From positions 1 through 64,000 of the forward strand of contig CAXXHO010000001.1 of the NCBI GenBank assembly GCA_963667725.2: 64,000 bases of DNA, given 5' to 3'. This DNA is from Treponemataceae bacterium. Lineage in GTDB: Bacteria > Spirochaetota > Spirochaetia > Treponematales > Rectinemataceae. Under the pieces are notes generated by a model. That model ran no database searches. It was given only the letters and a program-made list of their open reading frames with translations, and had not been told where the DNA came from. Both the position numbers and the translations under genes were made by a program. Each line of letters opens with the position of its first letter. Position 1 is the stretch's first letter. This document shows positions 4,214 through 24,776 of this stretch, in pieces.

Positions 4214-4381
4214 GTGGCATCTCCCTATTTATCTGCGCGATAGCGTCCACCTAACATTGGCTTAACCCTTAACGCCTGCTCCTGAGCGAAGCGAAGGATT
4301 GGCATGGTTTTTGCGTCATCTTCTAGCAAAAACCATGACAAAAGGCGTTATAGGGTTGAAGCTTTTGTTATGTGTCTTTTA

Positions 4382-5690
4382 TGTACACATCAGGGACATC
4401 GTTTACAAAACCTCAAGGACATCGTTTACACATTAAACTATGCTTTTCCTAGGGGGAAAGCATATGCCTTGGAGGAATACAACGATTATGGACGAGAAAT
4501 ACTTCTTCATCAATGAGTACCTGGCTCACAGACATACAATAACAGAACTCTGTAAGCAGTTTGGAATATCCCGAACCCTGGGGTACAAATACATTGAACG
4601 CTTTAACCACATGGGTTTTACCGGGCTTAATGAGCTTTCAAGAAAGCCTAAATCATGCCCTACTAAAACACCCGTAAGAATTGCCAAGAACATAATTTCA
4701 ATACGAAACAAGCATCCTCGATACGGTGCTGATAAAATCAAAACCATACTCGAAAGGGATATGCCAGATATGCAGTGGCCATCTCAAACGACAATTCATA
4801 CAATCTTAAAAATCGAAGGGCTAATACCCGAGAGGAAAACCAACCGCCATATCTATCCCTGTAATCCAAAGTTTGACCCCAAAGAAATAAACGATATGTG
4901 GGGCATTGATTACAAGGGAAAAATGCGATTGATTAATGCAGTATATTCATATCCCCTTACTATTACCGATTCATTTTCCCGTTTTATTTTGGCTGCTGAT
5001 GCTCTTGCAAGTCCCACTACAGAAGCTACAAAAGCAGTATTTATAAGGGTTTTCGAGGACTTTGGCTTGCCGAATTATATTCACAGCGATAATGGAGTGC
5101 CTTTTGCAGGATCAACATCATTGGCTCGCTTATCAAGTCTCTCTGTATGGTTCATTGAACTTGGTATTATGCCTGTGTACTCGGATCCTGCTAAGCCCGG
5201 TCAAAATGGCAGACATGAACGAATGCATAAAGAATTAAAAGCAGAAACGGCAAGTCCATTACCAAGATCTCATAATGAGTTACAGAAACGCTTAAATGCT
5301 TTTATTAAAGAGTACAATGAATACCGTCCTCATCAAGCGCTTAATAATAACACACCAGCAAGCATCTATAAACGATCAGAACGTGTATATCCTCAAAGTA
5401 TTGAACCGTGGGATTATCCTGGAGCGTTCGAAGTTAAAAGAGTTCTGAAGAATGGTGCTATACGCTGGGGTAATCATAACTGGATAATGGTTGCTACACC
5501 GCTTATTGGCAAAGACATTGGTCTCGAAGAAATCAGCGATGGCCTTTTTCGCGTCTATTTTAGGTTCAAGCTCCTTGGATATCTTGACGCCAGAAAACTA
5601 AGAATACAAGATATACAAGGACGCTTGAAGCGACAATAAAAGTGTAAACGATGTCCTTGTAGTTTTGTAAACTATGTCCTAGTTAGTACA
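4382..5690 (+). mobile_element. IS481-family insertion sequence, copy 1 (1309 bp, target duplication TTTA)
   Basis: TGT...ACA ends, imperfect ~50-bp IRs with doubled GGACATCGTTTACA sub-repeats, 4-bp flanking duplication. Confidence 0.93.
4464..5639 (+). CDS. IS481-family DDE transposase
   Basis: MPW... N-terminal HTH; rve core WGIDYKG, HSDNGVPF, QNGRHERMH, YNEYRPHQAL. Confidence 0.93.
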   Translation: MPWRNTTIMDEKYFFINEYLAHRHTITELCKQFGISRTLGYKYIERFNHMGFTGLNELSRKPKSCPTKTPVRIAKNIISIRNKHPRYGADKIKTILERDMPDMQWPSQTTIHTILKIEGLIPERKTNRHIYPCNPKFDPKEINDMWGIDYKGKMRLINAVYSYPLTITDSFSRFILAADALASPTTEATKAVFIRVFEDFGLPNYIHSDNGVPFAGSTSLARLSSLSVWFIELGIMPVYSDPAKPGQNGRHERMHKELKAETASPLPRSHNELQKRLNAFIKEYNEYRPHQALNNNTPASIYKRSERVYPQSIEPWDYPGAFEVKRVLKNGAIRWGNHNWIMVATPLIGKDIGLEEISDGLFRVYFRFKLLGYLDARKLRIQDIQGRLKRQ

Positions 5691-5691
5691 T

Positions 5692-6273
5692 TTAAAAATA
5701 TTTTTCACCAATTTTTATAGTTTCATTATCACTATCAAATATTAATGTTACGTAAGTTTCTGTTTCATATGCTTTATTATTACTATTCTCAATTGCAGCA
5801 AAAGATATACTTTGAGGATAACTAATAACATCATCACTCAAGCCAAGCAAAGTGTCTTCGCCATATTTTAAATCCTTATAATCATATATAATATTATAGC
5901 TTTTATTATAGACATATTTATCTGTAACCAAGCCCCATATCTGCTTAACATTATTTTCCACTGAGTAAATATAATAGCATTCTACAACCTTTTTATTAAT
6001 CCTTTCATTTGGATCAAAATACTCTTTCCCCCCCAATTTTACTGCTATAAAAAATTCTCCATACTTTCTTATAAGTTCATCTTTATTTTTTTCTCTTAAT
6101 CCAAAATTGAATCTATATATAACGAGACCCTTCGGTTCTTCAAGACATCCAATGCTTTGTGGAAATAATTCAAATAGAATACATGTTAATAGTATAAGTA
6201 TAGCTATGAGTATTCTTCTCTTTATGCTATAAATATTCAATTTGATACCATTAATTTTCATATTATCATCCAC
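5692..6273 (-). CDS. Hypothetical membrane-anchored protein
   Basis: ORF fills the cassette; N-terminal hydrophobic segment. Confidence 0.7.
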   Translation of the reverse strand: MDDNMKINGIKLNIYSIKRRILIAILILLTCILFELFPQSIGCLEEPKGLVIYRFNFGLREKNKDELIRKYGEFFIAVKLGGKEYFDPNERINKKVVECYYIYSVENNVKQIWGLVTDKYVYNKSYNIIYDYKDLKYGEDTLLGLSDDVISYPQSISFAAIENSNNKAYETETYVTLIFDSDNETIKIGEKYF

Positions 6274-6442
6274 TTTAACATACTAATGTTCTCATCTACT
6301 GCCCGTAGGGTCCACATAACATTAGCTTAACCTTTAAATCCGCGCCTGAGCGGAGCGAAGGCTTGGCGTGGTTTGTGCATTGTTGTTCTTGCACAAACCA
6401 TGACAAAGGATTTATAAGGTTGAAGCAGTTGTTAGGCGTAAG

Positions 6443-7162
6443 TTACTTTCTAATACTACATTTACTAGTATTTTCATAAAATTGCATTGTATTTTCGTAC
6501 ATATCCTTTATATGATCACTACTTTCAATAGATACATTTTTCGCATAATCTTTATAAAGTAACTGAAAACCTAAAGGAAAAACACCAATCGTCCAATCTA
6601 TAGCATATTCAGCGTTAATAGCTTCTTTTTTTAATGGAATTTTGTACTTTGTTATCATTTTTGAATAATTTACTTCCCAAATTGGCTCTTGGCTAATTCT
6701 TTTTATTGCCATATCATCAAGAGCACCACCTGTCCAATTTTGATATTCTTGTAATTTATTAGCAATAACAATAGGTAATCCCCATAAAAGATTGTTTTCC
6801 ATATCATAACTTATTTCGCCATATGAAACTCCTACTCTAGCTTTCATATTCCCTTCATATAAAGAATAAAATATTAGATGTTGAATAAATTGAATCAATT
6901 CTACTATGTTCTTTTGCCTATCTTCTTTTGTAAAAATCAATATTGTATCGGAAAACCATATTAAGTTCAAATACTCGTTTTTTTTAAAATCATTTATTGT
7001 TGGTAAAGATTCATTATTAATTTTAATACCTAAGCTTAAAGCAAGTACTTTTTTAAACCATGAAATATGTTTACTTTCAATTTCCTCAAGGCTTTTTTCC
7101 TTTAGCAGATTTGAAAAGCCCATAACATCACAAACAGCTATCATTTGATTGCTCATCTTCAC
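6443..7162 (-). CDS. Class III nucleotidyl cyclase-like (adenylate/guanylate cyclase fold) protein
   Basis: CDVMGFS...FSDTILI...RVGVSYGEI...WGLPIVIANKLQE. Confidence 0.6.
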   Translation of the reverse strand: MKMSNQMIAVCDVMGFSNLLKEKSLEEIESKHISWFKKVLALSLGIKINNESLPTINDFKKNEYLNLIWFSDTILIFTKEDRQKNIVELIQFIQHLIFYSLYEGNMKARVGVSYGEISYDMENNLLWGLPIVIANKLQEYQNWTGGALDDMAIKRISQEPIWEVNYSKMITKYKIPLKKEAINAEYAIDWTIGVFPLGFQLLYKDYAKNVSIESSDHIKDMYENTMQFYENTSKCSIRK

Positions 7163-7364
7163 TACCTTTTTTGCGCCGAAGGCGTCCGCCTAACATTGGC
7201 TTAACCCTTAACGCGTACATTGGCGCGGTTTGTGCTTGCGAGCGAAGCGAGTTGCACAAACCGTGACAATAGCGTTATAGGGTTGAAGCAGGTGTTGGAC
7301 GATTCCCTTGTACTTAATACTTAACTTCACTTTTTGTTACTAGCTTGATCACCTTGAACTATCT

Positions 7365-7778
7365 TCACTTATTAGTATTTTTTATCTTCTCTTCAACAAT
7401 TCTATAGATCTCTTCGTTCTTCTCTTTTCCTAACCCAATTATTATCTTCTCTGTCTTTCCTACTATCATTACATAAGGCTTCTCTTTCTTTATCTCAAAC
7501 AATCGTACTTTTCCTAGGTCTTTATAAGTAAACATTCCTATATTTATAAACCCTAAGTTTATTCCATTCGTCTTCAAGCCCCATAATGGTATTGTATCTA
7601 GTTCTTTTATACCTTCTATATCTTTATATGCTATCTCCGTCCCATATAACCCATTAATCTTAAGTGTGTTTTCTGAAGCATCGACAGATATTCCTTTACT
7701 GAGGAAGAGAGAAGAAAGCATGATGATTGCTGTTATGACCAAAGCGAGTATTATGGACTGCAGATTGCTTTTCTTCAT
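7365..7778 (-). CDS. Bacterial PH-domain protein (paralog 2)
   Basis: Highly similar to 501-914. Confidence 0.7.
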   Translation of the reverse strand: MKKSNLQSIILALVITAIIMLSSLFLSKGISVDASENTLKINGLYGTEIAYKDIEGIKELDTIPLWGLKTNGINLGFINIGMFTYKDLGKVRLFEIKKEKPYVMIVGKTEKIIIGLGKEKNEEIYRIVEEKIKNTNK

Positions 7779-8058
7779 AGCATCAGCCTTTCTATTACTC
7801 AGAGCATTTAAATTTCGCAGATAAAAGCATTTGAATAGCCTATCTTCTTTTGCGCGCGCGGAGCGCGTCCGTCCAACATTAGCTTAACCCTTAACGCGTA
7901 CATTGGCGCGGTTTGTGCTTATGAGCGAAGCGAATTGCACAAACCGTGACAATAGCGTTATAGGGTTGAAGCAGGTGTTGGACGATTTCCTTTAAATAAA
8001 ATCACTAATCTGCTATCTGCCATCAACTTATTCATCTTTATAAAGTATCAGCCTATCT

Positions 8059-8472
8059 TCACCTATTAGTATTTCTTATCTTCTCTTCAACAATTCTATA
8101 GATCTCTTCGTTCTTCTCTCTTCCTAACCCTATTACTATCTTCTCTGTCTTTCCTACTATAATAACATAAGGCTTCTCTTTCTTGATCTCAAATAATCTT
8201 ACCTTTCCTAATTCCTTATACGTAAACATTCCTATATTCATAAACCCTAAGTTTATTCCATTCGTCTTTAGGCCCCAGATTGGTATCGTTTCAAGCTCTT
8301 GTACATCTTCTATATCTTTATATGCTATTTCAGTTCCATATAATCCATTAATCTTAAGAGTATTTTCTAAAGTCTCTACAGATATTCCTTTACTAAGAAA
8401 GATTGAAAAAAGCATAATGACTGCAGTTATTACTAACGCGAGTATAATAGAATGCAGATTGTTTTTCTTCAT
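8059..8472 (-). CDS. Bacterial PH-domain protein (paralog 3)
   Basis: Highly similar to 501-914. Confidence 0.7.
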   Translation of the reverse strand: MKKNNLHSIILALVITAVIMLFSIFLSKGISVETLENTLKINGLYGTEIAYKDIEDVQELETIPIWGLKTNGINLGFMNIGMFTYKELGKVRLFEIKKEKPYVIIVGKTEKIVIGLGREKNEEIYRIVEEKIRNTNR

Positions 8473-8677
8473 GGTATAAGCCTTACAATTACTCTGAATA
8501 TTTCGAATTTGCAGATGACAGTATCAGAATAGCCTATCTTTTTTGCGCGCGCGAAGCGCGTCCGTCCAACATTGGCTTAACCGGTAATTCCGCGCCCGAA
8601 GGGCTTGGCGCGCAGTTTGCTAACGAGCGCAGCGAGCGCAAACTGCGTGACAAAGGAATTATCCGGTTGAAGCAGTT

Positions 8678-9239
8678 GTTAGGTCAATTTTCGTTTTTTG
8701 CCTTAACACCTTTGCAGCTATCAAGATACATGCCATGGCAAAAGCAATACTTATGCTAAAGGCTCTGTCTTTCATCGTGCATAGAACATATTTCTTCAGA
8801 CATAAGCTTCTATTATCTTGATCTTCAATCTTGACCTATTTCTCTTTTCCACTGCTTCAATCTTTCTTAAACAATATTTACCTTTATTTTCTTCGTTTTT
8901 TGAAGCAAGAAATATTCTCTTCTCCGTATACTTTGTATAATGAAGAATACAAGAACAGATCGCAATCGTAAGCAAGCTTACATTTTATCTGTTCTTGTAT
9001 TCTTCAATAGTACATTGTGTATGGTTTGCCCATTTTTCTTGGATCAATGCTTTAAGAAAATATTCCAAAATTGTTCTTTCTGTAGAATTTAGACAGGATA
9101 CTATTCAGGATAATTGAAAGCCATACTAAGTTTGCCGTTGAAGTAAGCACCATGAAAGCTGGTATCAAGCACGGGATTATGATCTTCCATGCCAATCACA
9201 CGTTGCCGTAGTGCGCCGCGTCAGCGGCGTCGACCTAAC
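8678..9239 (-). repeat. 562-bp cassette without a long ORF, copy at array position 29
   Basis: Near-identical to four other cassettes; no ORF of 60 aa or more; internal 20-bp inverted repeat. Confidence 0.9.
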
Positions 9240-9382
9240 ATTGGCTTAACCCTTAACGCGTACATTGGCGTGGTTTGTGCTTCGCGAACGCAGTGAGCTG
9301 CACAAACCATGACAATAGCGTTATAGGGTTGAAGCATGTGTTGGGTGTCTTATCTTATCTTTCTTTAATAAATACATTTATT

Positions 9383-9835
9383 CTAAATCTCTTTTCTCAT
9401 ACACACACTATATTCCATTCCCTTATATTGCCAATAATTATCTATTATTACATACATCAAACTTTTGTAAAGGCTTATTGCTGGTATAAATGTTTTACTT
9501 GTCTCTAGTAGTAATGTCTTTATATTTTTCTCTTTCGCTATGGCTTCTATTTTTTTCATCATTATTCTTGCTATCCCTGCTTTTCTATATTCTTTCTTTA
9601 CATATACTCTTTTTACTTCAAAAACATTCTCTTCAAGCTTTTTTATTGAAGCACAACCAATTGGCTTCATATTATCATAAGCAATAATTATATCTCTAAT
9701 TCCATCAAGCTTATTATATCTATTATATTGATTTTGAATTGACCCATTTTTTTCAAGAAACTCTAAATCCAATTCATTTGTTAACGAAATGAAATCTTCA
9801 TTTACTTCAGTAAAGTATTTATAAGTTATGTTCAT
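9383..9835 (-). CDS. GNAT acetyltransferase
   Basis: EVKRVYVKKEYRKAGIA motif. Confidence 0.9.
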   Translation of the reverse strand: MNITYKYFTEVNEDFISLTNELDLEFLEKNGSIQNQYNRYNKLDGIRDIIIAYDNMKPIGCASIKKLEENVFEVKRVYVKKEYRKAGIARIMMKKIEAIAKEKNIKTLLLETSKTFIPAISLYKSLMYVIIDNYWQYKGMEYSVCMRKEI

Positions 9836-10130
9836 TATGATCTTCCTATCCGCGCGCGCAGCGTCCACCCAACATTGGCTTAACCCTTAACGCGTACATT
9901 GGCGCGGTTTGTGCTTGCGAGCGAAGCAAGCTGCACAAACCGTGACAATAGCGTTATAGGGTTGAAGCAGGTGTTAGAAATCTTCTTTTACCATTATTAC
10001 TACATGCTGCATTTCATCAAAACATGAGTAAACTATTCTCTTGATAAGCTTTAATTCTCTTAACAATAGTACTTTCTTACATTCTCTTTATCTTTCTTAA
10101 CCAAAATCCTTTCCCTCTTCTCTTTCTTAA

Positions 10131-10478
10131 CTAAAGAACATCTTCTTTCCTAACATATTGTAGATAATCATCTCTTCTTGGACTAAATACTTCTAATGCT
10201 ACTGAGTCTTCAAGTATTTCTGCCTTATGCCTTACATTCGATTCAATATTCCAACTATCTCCTGGTTTTAGGTCTTTTGGCCTTCCATCAATAAAAAGCC
10301 GTATTGATCCTTTTACCAAGTAGCCTGTTTGTTCAGGAACATGATTATGTTCTGGAAGTACAGCACCTTTAGTAAGCATAAATTCTACCATTATTGAATT
10401 TGTGCCATAATTGAGAGACTTTATGCTTATTCCAGGTAGTATCTCTTTATAACCAGCATCTGAAGAAACACCAAACAT
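10131..10478 (-). CDS. Cupin domain protein (copy 1 of 3)
   Basis: PEHNHVPEQTGY...H cupin motifs. Confidence 0.9.
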   Translation of the reverse strand: MFGVSSDAGYKEILPGISIKSLNYGTNSIMVEFMLTKGAVLPEHNHVPEQTGYLVKGSIRLFIDGRPKDLKPGDSWNIESNVRHKAEILEDSVALEVFSPRRDDYLQYVRKEDVL

Positions 10479-10731
10479 ATGAACTCCACTAAATTGAACT
10501 TATTGAAACGAGATCTTATCTTCCTGCGCGGGAGCGTCTTTCTAACATTGGCTTAACCTTTAAATCCGCGCCTGAGCTACTGCGAGGGCTTGGCGTGGTT
10601 TGTGCTCTTCGTTTCTTGCACAAACCATGACAAAGGATTTATAAGGTTGAAGCATTTGTTAGACTTGACATTTGACTTTTACACACATACTATATACATA
10701 TATTATATATTTACTCTATCAGGAGGTTCTT

Positions 10732-10977
10732 ATGCTTGCACTTTATAATCGTAACGCTCCCAAAAAACCCACGAACCTTACTATTAACAGTGATTTACTC
10801 ATTAAGGCAAAAGAACTTAAGATAAATATATCATCGGTCCTAGAACAAGCTCTTGCTGAAAGACTTAAGCAGACTCAAAAAGATGAATGGCTAATGGAAA
10901 ATTCTGAATCTATCGCAAGCTATAACGAGCATATTGAGCAATTTGGTATTTTTAGCGATACAGTAAGGACATTCTAA
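10732..10977 (+). CDS. ccdA: CcdA family antitoxin
   Basis: AGGAGG RBS; KKPTNLTINSDLL...INIS...WLMEN...YNEHIEQFGIFSD. Confidence 0.9.
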   Translation: MLALYNRNAPKKPTNLTINSDLLIKAKELKINISSVLEQALAERLKQTQKDEWLMENSESIASYNEHIEQFGIFSDTVRTF

Positions 10978-11294
10978 TGGCACAATTCGATCTCTATTCA
11001 AACACTAACCACGTAACTAAAGCCATATATCCTTATCTTCTTGATGTTCAATCACCTTTGCTTGATTCTCTAGACACAAGGCTTGTAATACCATTAGCCC
11101 TAACTTCAAGATTTAAGGAAAAGGCTATAAAAAACTTGACTCCAGAAATTACAATCAAAGGGCATACTTATCTAGTTTTGACGCCACAAATGGCAGCTAT
11201 TAGTAAGAAAAGCCTTGGAATCTTTATCATGGATCTAGCAAGCAGCCGTACCACTATTATCTCGGCGATTGATTTCCTAATTACGGGATTTTAA
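10977..11294 (+). CDS. ccdB: CcdB family toxin
   Basis: MAQFDLY...PYLLDVQS.LL...TRLVIPL...AIDFLITGF; 1-nt overlap with ccdA; inverted cassette. Confidence 0.92.
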   Translation: MAQFDLYSNTNHVTKAIYPYLLDVQSPLLDSLDTRLVIPLALTSRFKEKAIKNLTPEITIKGHTYLVLTPQMAAISKKSLGIFIMDLASSRTTIISAIDFLITGF

Positions 11295-11389
11295 CTTTCT
11301 AAGTCTAACATTGGCTTAACCCTTAACGCGTACATTGGCGCGGTTTGTGCTTGCGAGCGAAGCGAGCTGCACAAACCGTGACAATAGCG

Positions 11390-12136
11390 TTATAGGGTTG
11401 AAGCAGGTGTTAGGATTCTTTTCTTAAGGTAATCTTCAATACTATAGAACTGTACTTCTTTAGCATCTTTAAGCAACGTAAAGAATATTGATCTATGCTC
11501 TACTCCAGCCAATACTACAGTAACAGCACCATCAACAGCTAACTTCTTGATATTTTCACACATACCTAGGTTTCTTGTATCCCAAAACTCAAGATACTTT
11601 CTACAAAACTCACTAAACTGAACTAGCTTGTCATTATTTGGCACAACTTCTGTGTAAAGTCGCTTAAGCAATTTCTCTTTATGTTCATTTACCCTATCAA
11701 AACGCGTACTATTGATATCATTCCATTTGCCATTATCTAATATCTCATCTCTCATGCCAAAGTACTTATTACTTTTTTCAATGATTACCCTTTGCCTATA
11801 TGTTAAGTCTTTACTTTTAATAAGGTTATCTATAGACAAAAATAGCGTATCTTCATTCTCTACAAGGTTCAAATCATGAACATACTTTTGCCTATCATGA
11901 ATATCATACGGTACTACTTTTATTCCATATTCCTTTGAATATGAATCAACGGCATACTCTTCCTGGCTTTCATAGTTACGCTGGATAATTCTCTTTCCAA
12001 ACTCATCATAAAAGCTATCAGGAAGCTCCTCTAGTATTAATGCTGGCTTTACTTCTTTTATAATGCTCAACAAATCATACTTTGAGTATGCTTTAGTAGG
12101 TCTATGAATAGTCCCAATAATTACTACTGTTTTCAT
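11390..12136 (-). CDS. Hypothetical protein (TraB/GumN-like motifs); C-terminus reads into attC
   Basis: IGTIH...PALILEELP...LAGVEH; ends LTPASTL inside attC. Confidence 0.6.
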   Translation of the reverse strand: MKTVVIIGTIHRPTKAYSKYDLLSIIKEVKPALILEELPDSFYDEFGKRIIQRNYESQEEYAVDSYSKEYGIKVVPYDIHDRQKYVHDLNLVENEDTLFLSIDNLIKSKDLTYRQRVIIEKSNKYFGMRDEILDNGKWNDINSTRFDRVNEHKEKLLKRLYTEVVPNNDKLVQFSEFCRKYLEFWDTRNLGMCENIKKLAVDGAVTVVLAGVEHRSIFFTLLKDAKEVQFYSIEDYLKKRILTPASTL

Positions 12137-12439
12137 TTTTTTTTGCGCCGCGCTAGCGGCGTCATCCTAACATTAGCTTAACCCTTAACGCGTACATTGG
12201 CGCGGTTTGTGCTTGCGAGCGAAGCGAGTTGCACAAACCGTGACAATAGCGTTATAGGGTTGAAGCAGGTGTTAGAAATCTTCTTTTACCATTATTACTA
12301 CATGCTGCATTGCTTCAAAACATGAGTAAATTATTCTCTTGATAAGCCTTAAGCAATCTTAGTTTCTCTTAACAATTGAACCTTCTTACATTCTCTTCAT
12401 CTTTCTTAACCAAAATCCTTTTCGTCTTCTCTTTCTTAA

Positions 12440-12787
12440 CTAAAGAACATCTTCTTTCCTAACATATTGTAGATAATCATCTCTTCTTGGGCTAAACACT
12501 TCTATCGCTATTGAATCTTCAAGTATTTCTGCCCTATGCCTTATATTTGATTCAATATTCCAACTATCTCCAATTTTGAGGTCTTGTGACTTTCCATCAA
12601 TAAAAAGCCGTATTGATCCATTTACCAAGTAGCCTGTTTGTTCAGGAACATGATTATGTTCTGGAAGTATGGCACCTTTAATAAGCCTAAATTCTACCAT
12701 TATTGAGTTTGTGCCATAATTAAGAGACTTTATGCTTATTCCAGGGATAATTTCTTTATAACCAGCATCTGAAGAAACGCCAAACAT
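12440..12787 (-). CDS. Cupin domain protein (copy 2)
   Basis: Paralog of 10131-10478. Confidence 0.9.
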   Translation of the reverse strand: MFGVSSDAGYKEIIPGISIKSLNYGTNSIMVEFRLIKGAILPEHNHVPEQTGYLVNGSIRLFIDGKSQDLKIGDSWNIESNIRHRAEILEDSIAIEVFSPRRDDYLQYVRKEDVL

Positions 12788-12988
12788 ATGAACTCCATCC
12801 TACTGAACTTATGAAAACGAGATTCTTATTATCTTCTCTTCCTGCGCGGGAGCGTCTTTCTAACATTAGCTTAACCCTTAACGCGTACATTGGCGCGGTT
12901 TGTGCTTGCGAGCGAAGCGAGTTGCACAAACCGTGACAATAGCGTTATAGGGTTGAAGCATGTGTTAGATTTCTTCTTTTATAACTAC

Positions 12989-13480: not shown

Positions 13481-13661
13481 TTTTAATCCTTATATTACAG
13501 CAAAACTCAATCAGTAATCTTATTTCCTGCCCGGAGGGTCAATCTAACATTAGCTTAACCCTTAACGCGTACATTGGCGCGGTTTGTGCTTGCGAGCGAA
13601 GCGAGCTGCACAAACCGTGACAATAGCGTTATAGGGTTGAAGCAGGTGTTGGGCAGGTTAT

Positions 13662-15458: not shown

Positions 15459-16049
15459 TTATAAGGTTGAAGCTTTTGTTAGATTTCTGACTTTCTCTTT
15501 TATTGTTTGATCTATTATATTATCGATAAGCCACTTGATTTGAGTCTCATTCATCTTTTTAGAAGCATTTACTATATCTTTACAATCTTTATCATTAAGC
15601 TCTTTTGTCTTATACAGTAAGACTGCTTCAGGACATAAATAAGGAATACGCTCTTCAGTAAACTGTATCACTTTTTTTTCATCAAGCTTGATCTCTTTAT
15701 CCCGCCTATAAATCCAATTATCTTCATCTCTCTCATTCAATAGTATTTCTAGTTCCAATCCTTTATATTCAACATATATTTCATGTATTGGCAGCTGAAG
15801 ATACTCTTTATTCCATTCTTTCTTTTCATGCTTCCCAATTCTGCTCTTGTTATTAATAAAGTATTTCTTACTACTTTCAAAGTACCGATATAGATGCATT
15901 TGATGCTTCCTATATATCCCAATTTCAATATCACTATGAACTCGTGTTTCCTTATCCAGGAATAGATCAATTGCCCAACCACCAGCAATGAACCAAGGAT
16001 AACCGAATTTATCCATTATACTTTTAACTTTTATACATTGATCAAACAT
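15459..16049 (-). CDS. Nucleotidyltransferase of the aminoglycoside-2''-adenylyltransferase/Lnu-like family
   Basis: WFIAGGWAIDLFL...RVHSDIEI...PEAVLLYK...KDCKD. Confidence 0.8.
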   Translation of the reverse strand: MFDQCIKVKSIMDKFGYPWFIAGGWAIDLFLDKETRVHSDIEIGIYRKHQMHLYRYFESSKKYFINNKSRIGKHEKKEWNKEYLQLPIHEIYVEYKGLELEILLNERDEDNWIYRRDKEIKLDEKKVIQFTEERIPYLCPEAVLLYKTKELNDKDCKDIVNASKKMNETQIKWLIDNIIDQTIKEKVRNLTKASTL

Positions 16050-16237
16050 ACACGCTCCTAAACTCTCACTTCAAACTTTGCATGTCATTAAAGATACTAT
16101 TTCTCCCTGGCGCGGAGCGCTCAATCTAACATTGGCTTAACCGGTAATTCCGCGCCCGAAGGGCTTGGCGCGCAGTTTGCTAACGAGCGCAGCGAGCGCA
16201 AACTGCGTGACAAAGGAATTATCCGGTTGAAGCAGTT

Positions 16238-16799
16238 GTTAGGTCAATTTTCGTTTTTTGCCTTAACACCTTTGCAGCTATCAAGATACATGCCATGGCA
16301 AAAGCAATACTTATGCTAAAGGCTCTGTCTTTCATCGTGCATAGAACATATTTCTTCAGACATAAGCTTCTATTATCTTGATCTTCAATCTTGACCTATT
16401 TCTCTTTTCCACTGCTTCAATCTTTCTTAAACAATATTTACCTTTATTTTCTTCGTTTTTTGAAGCAAGAAATATTCTCTTCTCCGTATACTTTGTATAA
16501 TGAAGAATACAAGAACAGATCGCAATCGTAAGCAAGCTTACATTTTATCTGTTCTTGTATTCTTCAATAGTACATTGTGTATGGTTTGCCCATTTTTCTT
16601 GGATCAATGCTTTAAGAAAATATTCCAAAATTGTTCTTTCTGTAGAATTTAGACAGGATACTATTCAGGATAATTGAAAGCCATACTAAGTTTGCCGTTG
16701 AAGTAAGCACCATGAAAGCTGCTATCAAGCACGGGATTATGATCTTTTCTGCCAATCACACGTTGCCGTAGTGCGCCGCGCTAGCGGCGTCGACCTAAC
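16238..16799 (-). repeat. 562-bp cassette without a long ORF, position 19
   Basis: Copy of 8678-9239. Confidence 0.9.
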
Positions 16800-17056
16800 A
16801 TTGGCTTAACCCTTAACGCGTACATTGGCGTGGTTTGTGCCTACGAGTGAAGCGAGTTGCACAAACCATGACAATAGCGTTATAGGGTTGAAGCAGGTGT
16901 TAGAAATCTTCTTTTACCATTATTACAATATGCTGCATTGCTTCAAAAAATGAGTAAACTATTCTCTTGATAAGCTTTAGTTCTCTTAACAATAGTACTT
17001 TCTTACATTCCCTTTATCTTTCTTAACCAAAATCCTTTCCCTCTTCTCTTTCTTAA

Positions 17057-17404
17057 CTAAAGAACATCTTCTTCCCTAACATACTTAAGGTAATCATCTC
17101 TTCTTGGGCTAAACACTTCTATCGCTATTGAGTCTTCAAGTATTTCTGCCCTATGCCTTACATTCGATTCAATATTCCAACTATCTCCAGGTTTTAAGTC
17201 TTTTGGCTTTCCATCAATAAAAAGCCGTATTGATCCTTTTACCAAGTAGCCTGTTTGTTCAGGAACATGAGTATGTTCTGGAAGTACAGCACATTTAGTA
17301 AGCATAAATTCTACCATAATTGAGTTAGTGCCATAATTAAGGGACTTTATACATATTCCAGAGATAATCTCTTTATAACCAGCATCTGAAGAAACGCCAA
17401 ACAT
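17057..17404 (-). CDS. Cupin domain protein (copy 3)
   Basis: Paralog of 10131-10478. Confidence 0.9.
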   Translation of the reverse strand: MFGVSSDAGYKEIISGICIKSLNYGTNSIMVEFMLTKCAVLPEHTHVPEQTGYLVKGSIRLFIDGKPKDLKPGDSWNIESNVRHRAEILEDSIAIEVFSPRRDDYLKYVREEDVL

Positions 17405-17606
17405 ATGAATTCCATCCTATTGAACTTAAGAAAACGAGATTCTTATTTTCTTCTCTTCCTGCGCGGGAGCGTCTTTCTAACATTAGCTTAACCTTTAAAT
17501 CCGCGCCTGAGCAAAGCGAAGGCTTGGCGTGGTTTGTGCATTGTTGTTCCTGCACAAACCATGACAAAGGATTTATAAGGTTGAAGCATGTGTTAGATGC
17601 CACTAT

Positions 17607-18915
17607 TGTACACATCAGGGACATCGTTTACAAAACCTCAAGGACATCGTTTACACATTAAACTATGCTTTTCCTAGGGGGAAAGCATATGCCTTGGAGG
17701 AATACAACGATTATGGACGAGAAATACTTCTTCATCAATGAGTACCTGGCTCACAGACATACAATAACAGAACTCTGTAAGCAGTTTGGAATATCCCGAA
17801 CCCTGGGGTACAAATACATTGAACGCTTTAACCACATGGGTTTTACCGGGCTTAATGAGCTTTCAAGAAAGCCTAAATCATGCCCTACTAAAACACCCGT
17901 AAGAATTGCCAAGAACATAATTTCAATACGAAACAAGCATCCTCGATACGGTGCTGATAAAATCAAAACCATACTCGAAAGGGATATGCCAGATATGCAG
18001 TGGCCATCTCAAACGACAATTCATACAATCTTAAAAATCGAAGGGCTAATACCCGAGAGGAAAACCAACCGCCATATCTATCCCTGTAATCCAAAGTTTG
18101 ACCCCAAAGAAATAAACGATATGTGGGGCATTGATTACAAGGGAAAAATGCGATTGATTAATGCAGTATATTCATATCCCCTTACTATTACCGATTCATT
18201 TTCCCGTTTTATTTTGGCTGCTGATGCTCTTGCAAGTCCCACTACAGAAGCTACAAAAGCAGTATTTATAAGGGTTTTCGAGGACTTTGGCTTGCCGAAT
18301 TATATTCACAGCGATAATGGAGTGCCTTTTGCAGGATCAACATCATTGGCTCGCTTATCAAGTCTCTCTGTATGGTTCATTGAACTTGGTATTATGCCTG
18401 TGTACTCGGATCCTGCTAAGCCCGGTCAAAATGGCAGACATGAACGAATGCATAAAGAATTAAAAGCAGAAACGGCAAGTCCATTACCAAGATCTCATAA
18501 TGAGTTACAGAAACGCTTAAATGCTTTTATTAAAGAGTACAATGAATACCGTCCTCATCAAGCGCTTAATAATAACACACCAGCAAGCATCTATAAACGA
18601 TCAGAACGTGTATATCCTCAAAGTATTGAACCGTGGGATTATCCTGGAGCGTTCGAAGTTAAAAGAGTTCTGAAGAATGGTGCTATACGCTGGGGTAATC
18701 ATAACTGGATAATGGTTGCTACACCGCTTATTGGCAAAGACATTGGTCTCGAAGAAATCAGCGATGGCCTTTTTCGCGTCTATTTTAGGTTCAAGCTCCT
18801 TGGATATCTTGACGCCAGAAAACTAAGAATACAAGATATACAAGGACGCTTGAAGCGACAATAAAAGTGTAAACGATGTCCTTGTAGTTTTGTAAACTAT
18901 GTCCTAGTTAGTACA
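17607..18915 (+). mobile_element. IS481-family IS, copy 2 (target duplication CTAT)
   Basis: Same length and identical protein to copy 1; CTAT duplicated on both flanks. Confidence 0.93.
17689..18864 (+). CDS. IS481-family transposase
   Basis: Identical translation to 4464-5639. Confidence 0.93.
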   Translation: MPWRNTTIMDEKYFFINEYLAHRHTITELCKQFGISRTLGYKYIERFNHMGFTGLNELSRKPKSCPTKTPVRIAKNIISIRNKHPRYGADKIKTILERDMPDMQWPSQTTIHTILKIEGLIPERKTNRHIYPCNPKFDPKEINDMWGIDYKGKMRLINAVYSYPLTITDSFSRFILAADALASPTTEATKAVFIRVFEDFGLPNYIHSDNGVPFAGSTSLARLSSLSVWFIELGIMPVYSDPAKPGQNGRHERMHKELKAETASPLPRSHNELQKRLNAFIKEYNEYRPHQALNNNTPASIYKRSERVYPQSIEPWDYPGAFEVKRVLKNGAIRWGNHNWIMVATPLIGKDIGLEEISDGLFRVYFRFKLLGYLDARKLRIQDIQGRLKRQ

Positions 18916-19581
18916 CTATTTATTCTTTGCCGTATTAGTCTTTAAAATGTACTTATCAATACCATACACTAGGTGGCTTATACACACCATAAATAGTACC
19001 AATCCTAATATAAAGGGTATCGTTTTAAGCCCTAGCCTATCATAATCCATAAAGAAGTATGGGAAATGTACTGGATTCCCCGTTCTATCAACGTAATACG
19101 TATATCCTAACAAGCCAATAACAGAATTCATTATAATATATAGCATTGGAAAGATAAGCGAAAAGTAAACAGTCCGATATTTCAACCTATCGTTTTGATA
19201 ATATAGAATGTAATCAACAATGCATAACAAAGGTGCTATCCCATGAACTGCAATATTTGAAAACTTCCACACGTTAGTCATAGTTGGTGCCAGCATTGTC
19301 CAGTACACAAAGAATGTCAAAAATATGTCAATCATACATACCATTTCAAAGTCTTTTGTCTGATCGATTGATTCTGAGCCGGCCTTAATGTTTAGGATTG
19401 TCTTTATTATCAAATAGCCGAACAGCAAGAGTACGAGTGTATTGCTCTGTATTGTATAGTACATGAACAATGACCAATCCCATGTACCTTTGAAACCGCC
19501 ACATATAGATACTATACCTAACAAGACTAGGATGAATGAGGCGATTCGAGTTGTAAGGATGACAGATTTATTCTTTACCAT
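18916..19581 (-). CDS. Pr6Pr-family integral membrane protein
   Basis: YYTIQSN, H..AP and PYFFMD motifs; multiple TM segments. Confidence 0.75.
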   Translation of the reverse strand: MVKNKSVILTTRIASFILVLLGIVSICGGFKGTWDWSLFMYYTIQSNTLVLLLFGYLIIKTILNIKAGSESIDQTKDFEMVCMIDIFLTFFVYWTMLAPTMTNVWKFSNIAVHGIAPLLCIVDYILYYQNDRLKYRTVYFSLIFPMLYIIMNSVIGLLGYTYYVDRTGNPVHFPYFFMDYDRLGLKTIPFILGLVLFMVCISHLVYGIDKYILKTNTAKNK

Positions 19582-19742
19582 TCGCAATTGCCCTATAGCG
19601 CGCGTCAAGCGCGTCCATCTAACATTGGCTTAACCTGTAATTGCGACCTGAGCGAAGCGAAGGATTGGCGCACTTTTTGCTAAGGAGCAAGGCGACGACT
19701 GCAAAAAGTGTGATAAGAGCAATTATCAGGTTGAAGCATGTG

Positions 19743-20240
19743 TTAGGTTTTTGTACTAAACTTTATTGTAATACTTTTACCTTGATCATCATCATAAAAT
19801 GTAATTGAACTCGCATCAGTATTTATTGGAGAAAAAACAAAAGTCCCATCTGCTGAATCATTACCACTAAATCCATAACTATCATATGCTATTCCTGTTG
19901 TTAGTATATGATTATACTTATTTCCAAAATTATCTTTTATATACATATCATAATTCTTATCATCAGATTTTTTTAGAATATATCCAATTTTACCTGGTGT
20001 ATATGTCGATACCCAAGTACAAAATATTTCTGTTGAATAATCTTCATATACTGCAATTTTGTGTACTTTTAGGCTTATAGTCATATTATATATACTTTTT
20101 GTATACATATTTTTATCAACTATATAATATCCAGGAAGAAGTGGCCTATCGATTATGTAAATATTGCATGATTCAATACAGACAATAAATAGTAAAGCAG
20201 CCAATTTCATTATTAACACTCTTAAATTTTTGCTATTCAT
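19743..20240 (-). CDS. Hypothetical exported protein or lipoprotein (second ORF of a two-gene cassette)
   Basis: Signal-like N-terminus with Cys; stop lies in attC R''. Confidence 0.6.
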   Translation of the reverse strand: MNSKNLRVLIMKLAALLFIVCIESCNIYIIDRPLLPGYYIVDKNMYTKSIYNMTISLKVHKIAVYEDYSTEIFCTWVSTYTPGKIGYILKKSDDKNYDMYIKDNFGNKYNHILTTGIAYDSYGFSGNDSADGTFVFSPINTDASSITFYDDDQGKSITIKFSTKT

Positions 20241-20271
20241 AGTTTTACTTGCCTTCTTACAGATTCGTGTT

Positions 20272-20871
20272 TTAATACTCTGTTATTTTAATTACAGTGT
20301 AATCACATTTGACTGAAGTCGAAGATTCGCCACCACACAAGAACCCTATTCTACCTTGATTATTCGATCCAAATTGATAAGTTGGATATTCATTATCATT
20401 TATATATATTTTCATATAACAACACCCATCATACCTAAGTTTTATTCTATTTTGTTTACCCAATCCCTTACGTACCCCTGGACACTCTCCAATACTCATT
20501 GCATTCCATGTATGCTTTCCATTTTGAATCAAATCAAATCCAGCATATCCATTTTTATTTAAAATTAGATAGCTATAATTATATCTATCTTTATAGTTAT
20601 AAACTACTCCGAATATTGTGTTTTCTGAACCACTTCTCAGGTTTACATCTACATCGAATTCTTTTATTGAATATTCTCTTGTGTCATATATTTTTATATA
20701 TGAATACTTATCAGAAATATTACTTTCAAATTCATATGAGCCGCTACCAAGATCTATCCAATCAAATTCCATTTGCTCATTGTCAATTAAACCAAACGAA
20801 CATGAATATAATATTAATGTGCAAAAAACAAACCTAATAAGGTACCTGTAGATTATTTTAATTCTAGTCAT
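20272..20871 (-). CDS. Hypothetical lipoprotein
   Basis: LYSC lipobox-like motif. Confidence 0.6.
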   Translation of the reverse strand: MTRIKIIYRYLIRFVFCTLILYSCSFGLIDNEQMEFDWIDLGSGSYEFESNISDKYSYIKIYDTREYSIKEFDVDVNLRSGSENTIFGVVYNYKDRYNYSYLILNKNGYAGFDLIQNGKHTWNAMSIGECPGVRKGLGKQNRIKLRYDGCCYMKIYINDNEYPTYQFGSNNQGRIGFLCGGESSTSVKCDYTVIKITEY

Positions 20872-21179
20872 ATTTCTATATCCATAGTGCTTAACTTTCC
20901 TTAAGCCATTTTTTCAATTATAGAAGCGCGCATATGCGCGTCAACCTAACATTGGCTTAACCCTTAACGCGTACATTGGCGCGGTTTGTGCTTGCGAGCG
21001 AAGCGAGCTTCACAAACCGTGACAATAGCGTTATAGGGTTGAAGCAGGTGTTAGGCAATTTTTTCTATTATCAGTATTTAATCTAGCATAATACATATCA
21101 TTTACTGCAAACTCTATTTAAGTACTAAATGAGTTATTCTATGCTATTTAATAATACTAACTTACTTTATCTCAATACA

Positions 21180-21626
21180 TTAGGATTTCATGAGTACTAG
21201 ATTCTTTATCCCATTACGATCAAATTCTTCTCTATATTTCTCTTCAGCAATTTCATGCTTCTCTTCAAGCTCTTCTTCAGCCATCTTCCTATACTCTTTT
21301 TCTCCAATCTCTTGAATAATGTCTCTTTGTCCTAACCTAAAAAGTAGTTCTTGCCAAAATGTTTCCTCAACAAAGTCATCAAAATCATCTCCAAATGCCT
21401 TCTCTGCAGCTTCTGTTAACTCATACTCATTTGTTGATTGATTGAATTCAATACCTCGAAAAGCCTTTGCCATTTTCGTAGTAAGTAATACTTTCTGAAT
21501 AAGGCTATTTATAGTTTTATCTTCTACATCATCTTTTGGCACAACAATAAATGTACCGGAGTACAACAACTTGAGGAAAAGCCCAACTTCTTCTTTAGCG
21601 AAAGTAATACTTATTTCGTTTGCCAT
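21180..21626 (-). CDS. Hypothetical protein (paralog of 31715-32161)
   Basis: Two near-identical cassette proteins. Confidence 0.8.
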   Translation of the reverse strand: MANEISITFAKEEVGLFLKLLYSGTFIVVPKDDVEDKTINSLIQKVLLTTKMAKAFRGIEFNQSTNEYELTEAAEKAFGDDFDDFVEETFWQELLFRLGQRDIIQEIGEKEYRKMAEEELEEKHEIAEEKYREEFDRNGIKNLVLMKS

Positions 21627-21796
21627 TTTCATAACTCCATTTGCAGCTATTTTGTTTGCGCGCGCGAAGCGCGTCTGCCTAACATTGGCTTAAGCTGGGA
21701 GCTTCGACCGCGAAGCGGTTGGCGCGCTTTTTGCGTAAAGGAGCGTAGCGACACGCAAAAAGCGTGACAAAGAAGCGACTCAGCTTGAAGCAGTTG

Positions 21797-22570
21797 TTAG
21801 GTTTCTGCTTTTTTTATGAAACATGTAATAGCTTCAATTAATAATCCTAAGAAAACTAAAGTTATTAAGTTTTGAACAATGATAAGAATTCTTGCTATAC
21901 TTGTTATTGGCAGAATATCACCAAATGTCATTGTTGTTGCAATACCTGCACTTAGGTACAGCATTCTAAAAAACTCGCCAGATAAGTTTTTAGGGAAACC
22001 TTTATAGGCATCACCTAATCCGATTATCTTTGTATAAATCTTTTTATCGATTTCTATAAATCCATTTGGTTTGCTATCAAATACTGAATTGTAATTGAAG
22101 ATCTGCAAAACATTGTTAGTAATAAACACATTATTATTTTCATGTGATTTAAGTAGGAATAATTTATTATCTGTTATTAAATAAGTTTTTAGATTTAATA
22201 CTAAAGAATCATTAAAGCCCATACCATTAATTAAACCTGCTTCATTCTTGTATTCAAATGAGAAGAAATACTTTAGAATTATTTCGTTTGGATACTTGGT
22301 TAAAGATATGTCATTAACCCGAAAATCAACAATCTTAATATTGTTAGGAAGATTCTTTAATAAAACATCCGATAACTGTTTCGTTAATACTGTTGTTATT
22401 TCAATAACATCCTTATTAAAACTACTATTTTCATATTGCACTGTTGAATGGTAAAAACTTTCTTGTGGTAGTATCCTATAGATTGCTGCAAACAGAACAA
22501 TGCTACAAATATATAAAAATAATATTATCAAAATTTTGTTTCTAAAGAGATATATAATATTTTTCAACAT
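21797..22570 (-). CDS. Two-TM ion-channel-domain protein
   Basis: YLSAGIATTMTFGDILP pore-like motif. Confidence 0.7.
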   Translation of the reverse strand: MLKNIIYLFRNKILIILFLYICSIVLFAAIYRILPQESFYHSTVQYENSSFNKDVIEITTVLTKQLSDVLLKNLPNNIKIVDFRVNDISLTKYPNEIILKYFFSFEYKNEAGLINGMGFNDSLVLNLKTYLITDNKLFLLKSHENNNVFITNNVLQIFNYNSVFDSKPNGFIEIDKKIYTKIIGLGDAYKGFPKNLSGEFFRMLYLSAGIATTMTFGDILPITSIARILIIVQNLITLVFLGLLIEAITCFIKKAET

Positions 22571-22726
22571 CTTATCCTCTGCGCGAAGCGTCAACCTAAC
22601 ATTGGCTTAACCCTTAACGCCTGCTCCTGAGCGTAGCGAAGGATTGGCGTGGTTTTTGCATTGTTGTTCTGCAAAAACCATGACAAAAGGCGTTATAGGG
22701 TTGAAGCAGTTGTTAGAGTGTTCTTT

Positions 22727-24035
22727 TGTACACATCAGGGACATCGTTTACAAAACCTCAAGGACATCGTTTACACATTAAACTATGCTTTTCCTAGGGG
22801 GAAAGCATATGCCTTGGAGGAATACAACGATTATGGACGAGAAATACTTCTTCATCAATGAGTACCTGGCTCACAGACATACAATAACAGAACTCTGTAA
22901 GCAGTTTGGAATATCCCGAACCCTGGGGTACAAATACATTGAACGCTTTAACCACATGGGTTTTACCGGGCTTAATGAGCTTTCAAGAAAGCCTAAATCA
23001 TGCCCTACTAAAACACCCGTAAGAATTGCCAAGAACATAATTTCAATACGAAACAAGCATCCTCGATACGGTGCTGATAAAATCAAAACCATACTCGAAA
23101 GGGATATGCCAGATATGCAGTGGCCATCTCAAACGACAATTCATACAATCTTAAAAATCGAAGGGCTAATACCCGAGAGGAAAACCAACCGCCATATCTA
23201 TCCCTGTAATCCAAAGTTTGACCCCAAAGAAATAAACGATATGTGGGGCATTGATTACAAGGGAAAAATGCGATTGATTAATGCAGTATATTCATATCCC
23301 CTTACTATTACCGATTCATTTTCCCGTTTTATTTTGGCTGCTGATGCTCTTGCAAGTCCCACTACAGAAGCTACAAAAGCAGTATTTATAAGGGTTTTCG
23401 AGGACTTTGGCTTGCCGAATTATATTCACAGCGATAATGGAGTGCCTTTTGCAGGATCAACATCATTGGCTCGCTTATCAAGTCTCTCTGTATGGTTCAT
23501 TGAACTTGGTATTATGCCTGTGTACTCGGATCCTGCTAAGCCCGGTCAAAATGGCAGACATGAACGAATGCATAAAGAATTAAAAGCAGAAACGGCAAGT
23601 CCATTACCAAGATCTCATAATGAGTTACAGAAACGCTTAAATGCTTTTATTAAAGAGTACAATGAATACCGTCCTCATCAAGCGCTTAATAATAACACAC
23701 CAGCAAGCATCTATAAACGATCAGAACGTGTATATCCTCAAAGTATTGAACCGTGGGATTATCCTGGAGCGTTCGAAGTTAAAAGAGTTCTGAAGAATGG
23801 TGCTATACGCTGGGGTAATCATAACTGGATAATGGTTGCTACACCGCTTATTGGCAAAGACATTGGTCTCGAAGAAATCAGCGATGGCCTTTTTCGCGTC
23901 TATTTTAGGTTCAAGCTCCTTGGATATCTTGACGCCAGAAAACTAAGAATACAAGATATACAAGGACGCTTGAAGCGACAATAAAAGTGTAAACGATGTC
24001 CTTGTAGTTTTGTAAACTATGTCCTAGTTAGTACA
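22727..24035 (+). mobile_element. IS481-family IS, copy 3 (target duplication CTTT)
   Basis: Same length and protein as the other copies; CTTT duplicated. Confidence 0.93.
22809..23984 (+). CDS. IS481-family transposase
   Basis: Identical translation to 4464-5639. Confidence 0.93.
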   Translation: MPWRNTTIMDEKYFFINEYLAHRHTITELCKQFGISRTLGYKYIERFNHMGFTGLNELSRKPKSCPTKTPVRIAKNIISIRNKHPRYGADKIKTILERDMPDMQWPSQTTIHTILKIEGLIPERKTNRHIYPCNPKFDPKEINDMWGIDYKGKMRLINAVYSYPLTITDSFSRFILAADALASPTTEATKAVFIRVFEDFGLPNYIHSDNGVPFAGSTSLARLSSLSVWFIELGIMPVYSDPAKPGQNGRHERMHKELKAETASPLPRSHNELQKRLNAFIKEYNEYRPHQALNNNTPASIYKRSERVYPQSIEPWDYPGAFEVKRVLKNGAIRWGNHNWIMVATPLIGKDIGLEEISDGLFRVYFRFKLLGYLDARKLRIQDIQGRLKRQ

Positions 24036-24776
24036 CTTTTTTATAAGAACATTTTGTAACTCAATGATTTTAAAATCAAGAATTTTAAGTGCTACTTTGC
24101 TAATATGAATGCAACTATAATCTCTTTCCAATAATATTTTAAGATACTTGCCTTTATTTTCAAGTTTCGAATAAAATACTGCCCAGGATAGATTTTGTGT
24201 ACTTATCTTTTTATCATTAAAGTAGCTTAAGAAATTATTTTCACTTAATGCTAAACCTAATGTTTCACTAAATCTTTTATAATTAATCGCTTTACTTTTA
24301 ATTTTTGATTCTGCCCATTTTTGTAAATCAGCATTTTCATCTGGATATCTAAGAACCCTGTTCAGTACTAATTCATTTTTATCAGAATTATCTATAAGCC
24401 ATTGAATCTGATCTTTAGATAGTATCAAATCTTTAATATATTTTGATACCCTCCATACTTCATTTGTTTCTTTAAGAACATACTTTTGATAGACACAAAA
24501 AAGAAGATTTATTATTTTTATATCTCTAATCTTTTCGGTTGAATTATTAATAATTTTATATAAGATTTTCTTTGCTAAGTCTTTTTTATTTCTACTTTTT
24601 GAAAGTATATAATTACATACTATTTCTATTAGCTTATCTCTATTAACTACATCATAGCTTATTAATGATAAAAGTAGATAGTTATCAAACAGGTCATCTA
24701 TTGTTTTTATGTATTTTGGGAGATATTTGCTTGAATTTGCCTGAAGTAATAAGCTTTCAATTTCAGTGACTTTCAT
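24024..24776 (-). CDS. Hypothetical protein; last codons supplied by the IS end
   Basis: ORF ends CTN* inside the IS right IR. Confidence 0.7.
   Translation of the reverse strand: MKVTEIESLLLQANSSKYLPKYIKTIDDLFDNYLLLSLISYDVVNRDKLIEIVCNYILSKSRNKKDLAKKILYKIINNSTEKIRDIKIINLLFCVYQKYVLKETNEVWRVSKYIKDLILSKDQIQWLIDNSDKNELVLNRVLRYPDENADLQKWAESKIKSKAINYKRFSETLGLALSENNFLSYFNDKKISTQNLSWAVFYSKLENKGKYLKILLERDYSCIHISKVALKILDFKIIELQNVLIKKCTN

Follow-up and report, generated by a model that had tools for sequence, protein, structure and literature searches.

Integrons are the main bacterial gene-capture system, and elements that home to their attC sites shape the growth, breakage and movement of cassette arrays. 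Two kinds of attC-homing element alone are established, insertion sequences (ISs) of the IS1111-attC group and group IIC introns, and neither of them has a DDE transposase. IS1111-attC elements (IS110 family; among them ISPa21 and ISUnCu1) home to attC in one orientation, inserting inside the site without target duplication. The group is reportedly treated in the work of Tetu and Holmes from 2008 and of Post and Hall from 2009. Its transposase is of the DEDD type and has recently been shown to be RNA-guided (PMC11187229). Group IIC-attC introns, retroelements that consist of a ribozyme and a reverse transcriptase, insert specifically and directionally at attC (PMC3001079). A DDE element that keeps a fixed distance is described at another recombinase site: members of the ISAjo2 group (IS1202 family; Harmer, Pong & Hall 2023, PMC10132070) lie in a single orientation, with 5 bp between them and the XerC side of dif/pdif, are ~1.5 kb long, encode a transposase of 441-457 aa and produce a 5-bp duplication. 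Here we analyse a 1309-bp IS that is present in three copies in the array of an integron carried by the first 64,000 nucleotides of contig CAXXHO010000001.1 (assembly GCA_963667725.2, Treponemataceae bacterium); this whole stretch is referred to as the window. The IS inserts by transposition, directionally and at a position set from attC; transposition follows from the duplications, which match, from flanks that are unrelated and from a counterpart site that is empty.

Like the IS1111-attC elements, the window IS homes to attC in a single orientation, but it differs from them in having an rve-type DDE transposase, in duplicating 4 bp of the target and in landing 8 nt outside the R'' box, and Pfam detects in it nothing of the kind that characterizes group IIC-attC introns. 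In mode of working the ISAjo2 group appears to be its nearest analogue: the two share a DDE transposase, a fixed short distance, a short duplication, the lack of an accessory protein and a recombination site that is left intact. The window IS nevertheless differs from ISAjo2 in family, target site and recombinase, with a transposase of 391-399 aa, a length of 1309 bp, a 4-bp duplication and a position 15 nt from attC R''. A DDE IS able to gauge how far it lies from attC, with the site remaining usable afterwards, would represent a new parasite and remodeller of cassette arrays. The preliminary description of this DNA named no IS481 element known to target attC, and a full-text literature search, with ISfinder, subscription journals and supplements outside its scope, agrees in finding no description of such targeting by an IS481-type or any other DDE element. 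The accessible parts of papers that match both 'IS481' and attC concern unrelated resistance regions. ISs have been found within the cassettes of 23% of complete integrons, their families being unnamed in the accessible part of that survey (Cury et al. 2016); in the V. cholerae array, IS3 copies were reported within the coding sequences of cassettes (Richard et al. 2024); and transposases were noted in a Treponema integron, without a target rule in the text available (Wu et al. 2013, PMC3607928). A check on those Treponema integron transposases gave no match to the window-type transposase at E 1e-40 in five genomes of the order.

The three IS copies of the window do not differ from one another at a single base. 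Each starts exactly 15 nt after the plus-strand G of the R'' box of an attC (G at 4367, 17592 and 22712, in GTTATGT, GTTAGAT and GTTAGAG), so that the left end of the IS lies 8 nt past the box and attC itself is intact in all three cases. Cassette ORFs are on the minus strand and the IS gene is on the plus strand, which makes the transposase antisense to the cassettes. Every copy is bounded by its own 4-bp target duplication (Table 1), and the three IS-bearing cassette ORFs are unrelated (local BLOSUM62 scores of 28-43). The flanking attCs of the array also differ mutually (families D10-D14, 80-97%). Copy 3 has substituted the last codons of cassette ORF 24024-24776(-), which now ends 12 nt within the IS. 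When the plus strand is folded as single-stranded DNA, the three occupied attCs form canonical bottom-strand hairpins of -33.5 to -36.3 kcal/mol (z -7.5 to -8.9), with boxes RYYYAAC and GTTRRRY and, in the 3' arm, two bulges of one base each (T and G); none of 200 shuffles folded as well. Thus, re-measurement bears out the copies, duplications, 15-nt offset and antisense orientation given in the preliminary description, together with its statements that the insertions are independent, given three different intact duplications in unrelated cassettes, and that attC is preserved.

A search of the whole 4,224,812-base assembly revealed no IS copy beyond those of the window, and consequently all three copies in the genome adjoin attC. 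With ~30 attC sites in ~34.2 kb and two possible orientations, ~4e-4 of random insertions would fit the rule, and the same arithmetic puts the chance that three of three fit at ~1e-10. We consider it close to certain that attC targeting by this IS is real. As a separate observation on copy number, the word depth of the IS unitig (4382-5671) in run X1 is 502, compared with ~70 in both unique flanks. Besides the three assembled copies the sample may thus contain additional ones, or other carriers of the IS, although depth is not equal to copy number.

The rule extends to the same IS (at least 92% identical) in other records. A protein-guided scan of one genome per species yielded 78 loci. Contig CAXXOL010000030.1 has four left ends of the identical IS, of which one (locus L011) equals window copy 2 and three are at new sites. 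Among the latter, L010 has the intact duplication TGCC, the fourth distinct one, and L012 (2943-4251) has mismatched flanks, TTTC on the left and CCCT on the right. The right flank of L012 corresponds to window cassette 28270-29154 (99.8% identity), whose target site is empty in the window. Because the flanks do not match and the right one is a cassette that stands empty in the window, L012 is the outcome of two insertions followed by recombination between IS copies, which removed or rearranged cassettes. In OW818665.1, a 92%-identical IS (L013) starts 15 nt after the G, although its duplication is not clean. Finally, metagenome contigs contain 13 exact matches to the IS tip, which represent 11 distinct junctions. 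The pooled set thus comprises 18 distinct left junctions (3 from the window, 3 from CAXXOL010000030.1, 1 from OW818665.1 and 11 from metagenomes), with GTT at -15 in 17 and at -14 in the remaining one (L088), and with the left inverted repeat (IRL) facing attC in all 18. Since the length of attC at these junctions varies from ~60 to ~140 nt, the distance is kept to the R'' arm and not to R'. Conserved columns span -28 to -19 (GGTTGAAGCA) and -16 to -11 (TGTTAG), whereas no base is invariant from -8 to -1, a T-rich stretch here as in the 27 empty sites of the window. Hence the bases at the cut are not read by the transposase, in line with the earlier proposal that the target is a position relative to attC. 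The offset, which had been called fixed, is better given as 15 nt, occasionally 14. The six junction pairs in which target duplications could be compared include four intact ones, one recombinant (L012) and one unclear case (L013).

Two observations concern the records themselves. The contig bearing L010-L012 is titled as a Bacteroidaceae metagenome-assembled genome, yet another close copy is titled Spirochaetes; relatives of the Leptospira type occur in phylum-level kin of the window, and the label or binning of CAXXOL010000030.1 is doubtful. Furthermore, an 84-86%-identical copy (L014/L116, G359:C30) lacks its first 40-46 codons, has three in-frame stops in G359 and abuts the 3' end of a tyrosine-recombinase gene.

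More diverged relatives follow the same geometry. A 57%-identical IS (L144), from a genome of the same order, has its left end 15 nt past the G in a classical attC and is flanked by a 3-bp repeat; its attC is nearly identical to that at the 92% copy in the same genome (G371). A further clade, 42-52% identical to the window IS, comes from records mostly titled Bacteroidota (Maribacter, Flavobacteriales and others). Its 73 loci include 46 with a recognizable left end and at least 60 nt of flank, 45 of them distinct. GTT is present at an offset of 13-15 in 37 of these 45 (26 at 14, 10 at 15 and 1 at 13), while the background elsewhere in the flank is 0.67 GTT per offset, and the right flanks, read in the same way as a control, gave 3 of 21. 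The shared flank has the form caTAgcC-N4-5-CGTTR; target repeats of 3-4 bp accompany 11 of the 23 copies that have both ends and flanks, and several loci show 3-5 co-oriented sites. A tyrosine recombinase gene lies ~5 kb from the array of one such locus, L084, and scores 235.8 bits with the XerA/integron-integrase model and 212 with the IntI model (cut-off 265). That these sites are attC is only partly shown. Whole-flank folds gave a median z of -2.0 compared with -0.5 in controls, and duplex folds a median z of -0.6, both too noisy to place the foot of a stem; Rfam assigned no family to the flanking hairpins of ten distant loci. In the phylogenetic tree, the window IS and L013 are sister to the 42-52% clade with 99% support, and the Leptospira, Turneriella and Cupriavidus elements fall outside both sister branches. 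As both the 57% relative and the sister clade insert 13-15 nt from an equivalent GTT, the targeting rule is older than the window element. Thus, the survey of homologues called for in the preliminary description extends the rule beyond the 18 junctions of the same IS to two further lineages.

The outgroup behaves differently. One Leptospira-plasmid copy that was read closely has no GTT at the rule distance. Copies of ~40% identity from genomes of the same phylum (L117, L119, L120, L122, L124 and L125) have a conserved left flank of their own, with a small hairpin, GTCGGAA-N-CGAC, followed by a C-rich block that ends a few bases before the IS tip, which suggests another site-specific habit in that lineage. 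In one other copy, L058 (OY970294.1, 2904-2921), the left end carries a tandem duplication of the initial 9 nt of the tip.

The transposase ORF probably starts at the ATG at 4464 and would then encode 391 aa beginning with MPWR, since relatives are 391 aa long and the alignment consensus begins in the same way. The protein matches Pfam families rve, rve_3, HTH_28 and HTH_32, and D157, D217 and E260 are conserved across 37 aligned relatives. Its best NCBIfam model is NF033577 (IS481), matched over residues 21-309 with 201.4 bits, below the curated cut-off of 224; the IS3 model reaches 110.6 bits. The nearest annotated relatives, at ~40% identity on Leptospira and Turneriella plasmids, are named 'IS481 family transposase', and the IS has the single long DDE ORF without programmed frameshift that is a feature of the family. 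The earlier assignment to IS481 is therefore reasonable, as the best-scoring profile, even though the score stays under the cut-off. With canonical members (IS481, IS1002) the window IS shares the uninterrupted DDE ORF, TGT ends, a short duplication and a size of ~1-1.3 kb; it departs from them in its 50-bp ends with two internal repeats and in the profile score. More exactly, the ends measure 50 and 49 nt (TGTAC...GTACA) and each contains two copies of a 14-nt motif. The target duplication of the IS481 family ranges from 4 to 15 bp, and the known preference of IS481 itself is for targets with the short palindrome NCTAGN rather than for a site recognized from some way off. Other DDE elements recognize structured repeats or recombinase-occupied sites, and in this respect IS1397 and ISKpn1 (IS3 family), which insert into REP palindromes, and Tn5053/Tn402 resemble the window IS, although they belong to other families, have different targets and integrate in the site itself, whereas the window IS lies next to it. 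The AlphaFold model (mean pLDDT 82.8) predicts an RNase-H-like core preceded by two helical domains for DNA binding at the N-terminus and followed by a beta domain at the C-terminus, with IstA of IS21, TnsB of CRISPR-associated transposons and retroviral integrases as best structural matches; no extra domain that might serve as a dedicated attC reader is seen in the predicted structure. Within the IS, a sigma-70 scan found 7 sites versus 5.1 expected, and the terminator scan found none. The idea that the IS-end motif mimics the attC R'' box was dropped, given a weak resemblance and no co-variation between lineages by eye. Taken jointly with the mode of recognition proposed below, the reading of the element as an active IS481-type insertion sequence with a DDE transposase, for which position with respect to attC decides the target, is on balance probable.

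Table 1. Positions of the IS copies, target sites and integron features (window coordinates unless another record is named)
Feature	Position	Strand	Remarks
IS copy 1	4382-5690	+	1309 bp; IRL 4382-4431, right inverted repeat (IRR) 5642-5690
IS copy 2	17607-18915	+	1309 bp
IS copy 3	22727-24035	+	1309 bp
Transposase ORF	4440-5639	+	399 aa
Target duplication TTTA, copy 1	4378-4381 / 5691-5694		right one overlaps TAA stop of cassette ORF 5692-6273(-)
Target duplication CTAT, copy 2	17603-17606 / 18916-18919		right one overlaps TAG stop of ORF 18916-19608(-)
Target duplication CTTT, copy 3	22723-22726 / 24036-24039		
attC of cassette 1	4249-4373	-	R' ACCTAAC 4249-4255, R'' GTTATGT 4367-4373 (+ strand = bottom strand)
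attC of cassette 2	17475-17598	-	R'' GTTAGAT 17592-17598
attC of cassette 3	22594-22718	-	R'' GTTAGAG 22712-22718
Empty target site GTTAGGC gttt CCCT	28259-28273	+	right end of the L012 IS abuts exactly this cassette, flank CCCT
Empty site GTTAGGA ttct TTTC	11409-11423	+	15 nt = left IS flank in L012; surrounding attC 94% alike
Integron integrase intI	34405-35739	-	Pfam; TIGR02249 452.8 bits vs cut-off 265
Integrase genes of the same genome	C1 34408-35739; C7 36700-37989; C5 550880-552103		C1 is that of the window
Short-cassette copies (five)	8550-8945, 16110-16505, 25461-25856, 29122-29517, 33547-33942		
IS lineages on G371:C1	L144 (57%) ~483.2-484.4 kb; L013/L115 (92%) 557.6-558.8 kb		same position, nearly identical attCs

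The array is a complete chromosomal integron. Its integrase gene, intI, is co-oriented with the cassettes, and the array extends from ~34.2 kb to the contig end at window base 1; such an 'inverted' layout has been reported for Treponema (PMC3607928). A search for the L''-R'' motif (GGTTGAAGC-N3-5-GTTA, two mismatches allowed) identified 30 matches on the plus strand between 1113 and 33675, of which 3 are occupied by the IS and 27 are empty. The assembly, for which 6% contamination is estimated, encodes three integron integrases, 100, 87 and 69% identical to that of the window. It contains 202 L''-R'' motifs, mostly on C5, where they form a very large array (409-479 kb and further), and the IS is found only in the array on C1.

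In this setting the IS sits between the end of a cassette ORF and attC, and the attC hairpin, both core boxes and usually the ORF stay whole. The position would offer the IS a safe harbour, and as part of a cassette that is still movable by IntI it may be carried along; the IS would then be a likely hitch-hiker on mobile cassettes. Consistent with this, the attC-IS-ORF block at 17469-19680 is 99.4% identical to positions 1283-3496 of L011, and its neighbours differ on both sides, which would fit movement by IntI of a cassette with the IS inside. The transport on excised cassettes that had been suggested for this IS thus gains a case in two assemblies, with the reservation given below. Arrays would be remodelled as well, because recombination between IS copies deletes cassettes, as at L012.

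How, then, does the transposase find its position? The preliminary description named attC DNA, its hairpin or bound IntI as what may be recognized. The 4-bp duplication implies that the target is double-stranded and is cut with a 4-bp stagger. We propose that the transposase directly reads the L''-spacer-R'' arm of attC as duplex DNA (GGTTGA-N7-GTTA), a mode that ranks first among those considered and to which we assign a probability of about 45%. The arm would be contacted probably through one of the two N-terminal helix-turn-helix domains, and this asymmetric contact would place the catalytic core ~1.5 helical turns away, where staggered cuts duplicate bases 12-15, counted from the R'' G on the attC bottom strand. 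An asymmetric contact of this kind would account for both the fixed distance and the single orientation. Reading of the sequence is feasible, as the ten fixed bases of GGTTGA-N7-GTTA have 202 matches in the genome and only 5 for the reversed control; in the unused R' arm of these sites the spacing is different by a single base, the extrahelical G. The IS would be a natural test case of how a one-protein transposase achieves site-specific and oriented insertion, of relevance to research on both integrons and transposase targeting.

Several points weigh against direct reading of the arm, or limit the rule on which it is built. Every occupied site has the arm sequence, the hairpin and the features of a recombinase site alike, so that the modes of recognition are inseparable there. 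The distant clade keeps the distance to GTT despite a different L'' box (CATAGCC type), and a structure or protein partner common to both lineages would explain this conservation no less well than would co-evolution of a DNA-binding domain. On other contigs, ~170 identical attC-type motifs are unoccupied, compared with 3 of 29-30 occupied in the C1 array, which pure sequence read-out does not predict; the point is weak, because local hopping or a mixed assembly (given the contamination and the three intI genes) could explain the empty motifs. The rule is also not absolute, as the same IS has one of its 18 junctions at -14, and GTT is missing from 13-15 at 8 of the 45 distant junctions. Some of these 8 belong to copies nearly identical to fitting ones, and in the distant clade the rule is hence a strong preference. 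An upstream AAC with an L' partner accompanies 12 of 36 distant-clade sites (2.5 expected), and the duplications could be checked in six junction pairs, all within the close family. Finally, two independent insertions at the same fixed position would look identical to the shared block of L011 and the window, and would serve equally to explain it.

A tentative alternative, to which we give rather less than even odds, is that a clade of DDE transposases from two phyla reads the architecture of a tyrosine-recombinase site, either folded attC or a bound integrase or Xer-like enzyme, rather than base sequence, and lands 1.5 turns from R''. If true, the IS would be the integron counterpart of the dif-hunting ISAjo2 group, an example of insertion guided by site architecture with protein only. 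The two forms of this idea can be weighed separately. In the first, the transposase would dock on IntI at the R box of attC, or on an Xer/IntI-like recombinase in the Bacteroidota-titled records, and integrate at a set distance. A precedent exists in the 'res hunters' Tn5053/Tn402, which need an occupied res site. Guidance by a recombinase would explain why the distance to the R'' GTT is constant across lineages with different L'' sequences, and why all copies are in the array beside one of the three intI genes and none at the ~170 motif-identical sites elsewhere, although this clustering is also explained by local hopping or a mixed assembly. The Xer/IntI-like tyrosine recombinase ~5 kb from the L084 array is in keeping with it. 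On the other hand, IntI has a far stronger affinity for the bottom strand, single and folded, than for attC as a duplex, and the 4-bp duplication implies a double-stranded target; moreover, the predicted transposase has no domain beyond the usual layout of IS21, Mu and retroviral integrases. The authors who described ISAjo2 raise the possibility of the same kind of guidance for XerC (PMC10132070), and for the window IS we regard it as unlikely.

In the second form, which seems less likely again, the transposase would recognize the extruded attC hairpin or cruciform by its stem base and extrahelical bases, and insert into the duplex next to it, 3' of the bottom strand. Strong folding is seen at all occupied sites, the used arm differs from the R' arm mainly by the extrahelical G, which is a strand marker in the folded form, and the offsets are conserved between lineages with different box sequences. 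The copies of the Leptospira-type outgroup beside a small conserved hairpin, recognized by eye in ~6 of 24 flanks, may point to an ancestral liking for hairpin repeats. Nevertheless, variation in stem length of ~60-140 nt leaves the position unchanged, which is equally expected if the sequence of the R'' arm is read, and a clean partner arm is present at only about one third of the distant-clade sites.

The least credible explanation, that there is no targeting and that a single ancestral insertion was spread by cassette duplication and by attC x attC or homologous recombination, or else that the junctions are assembly artefacts, could appeal to the similarity of attCs within one array, to the recombination of IS copies (the mismatched flanks of L012) and to Logan unitigs from three runs, which break at the IS ends and neither bridge nor contradict the junctions, but it is very hard to reconcile with four different intact duplications beside unrelated ORFs, as recombination cannot make matching duplications, with a total of 18 distinct junctions spread over 16 records (13 contigs from metagenomes and 2 genome records in addition to the window), with a copy-2 junction that is identical in an independent assembly (L011) and with diverged lineages that obey the same rule. 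The left end of the IS could serve as an annotation marker that flags an attC or attC-like site in phyla whose sites are poorly modelled.

The array of the window has one further peculiarity. A short cassette together with its attC occurs in five copies, 95-100% alike over at least 300 nt, which are scattered through the array (Table 1), and one of them adjoins attI.

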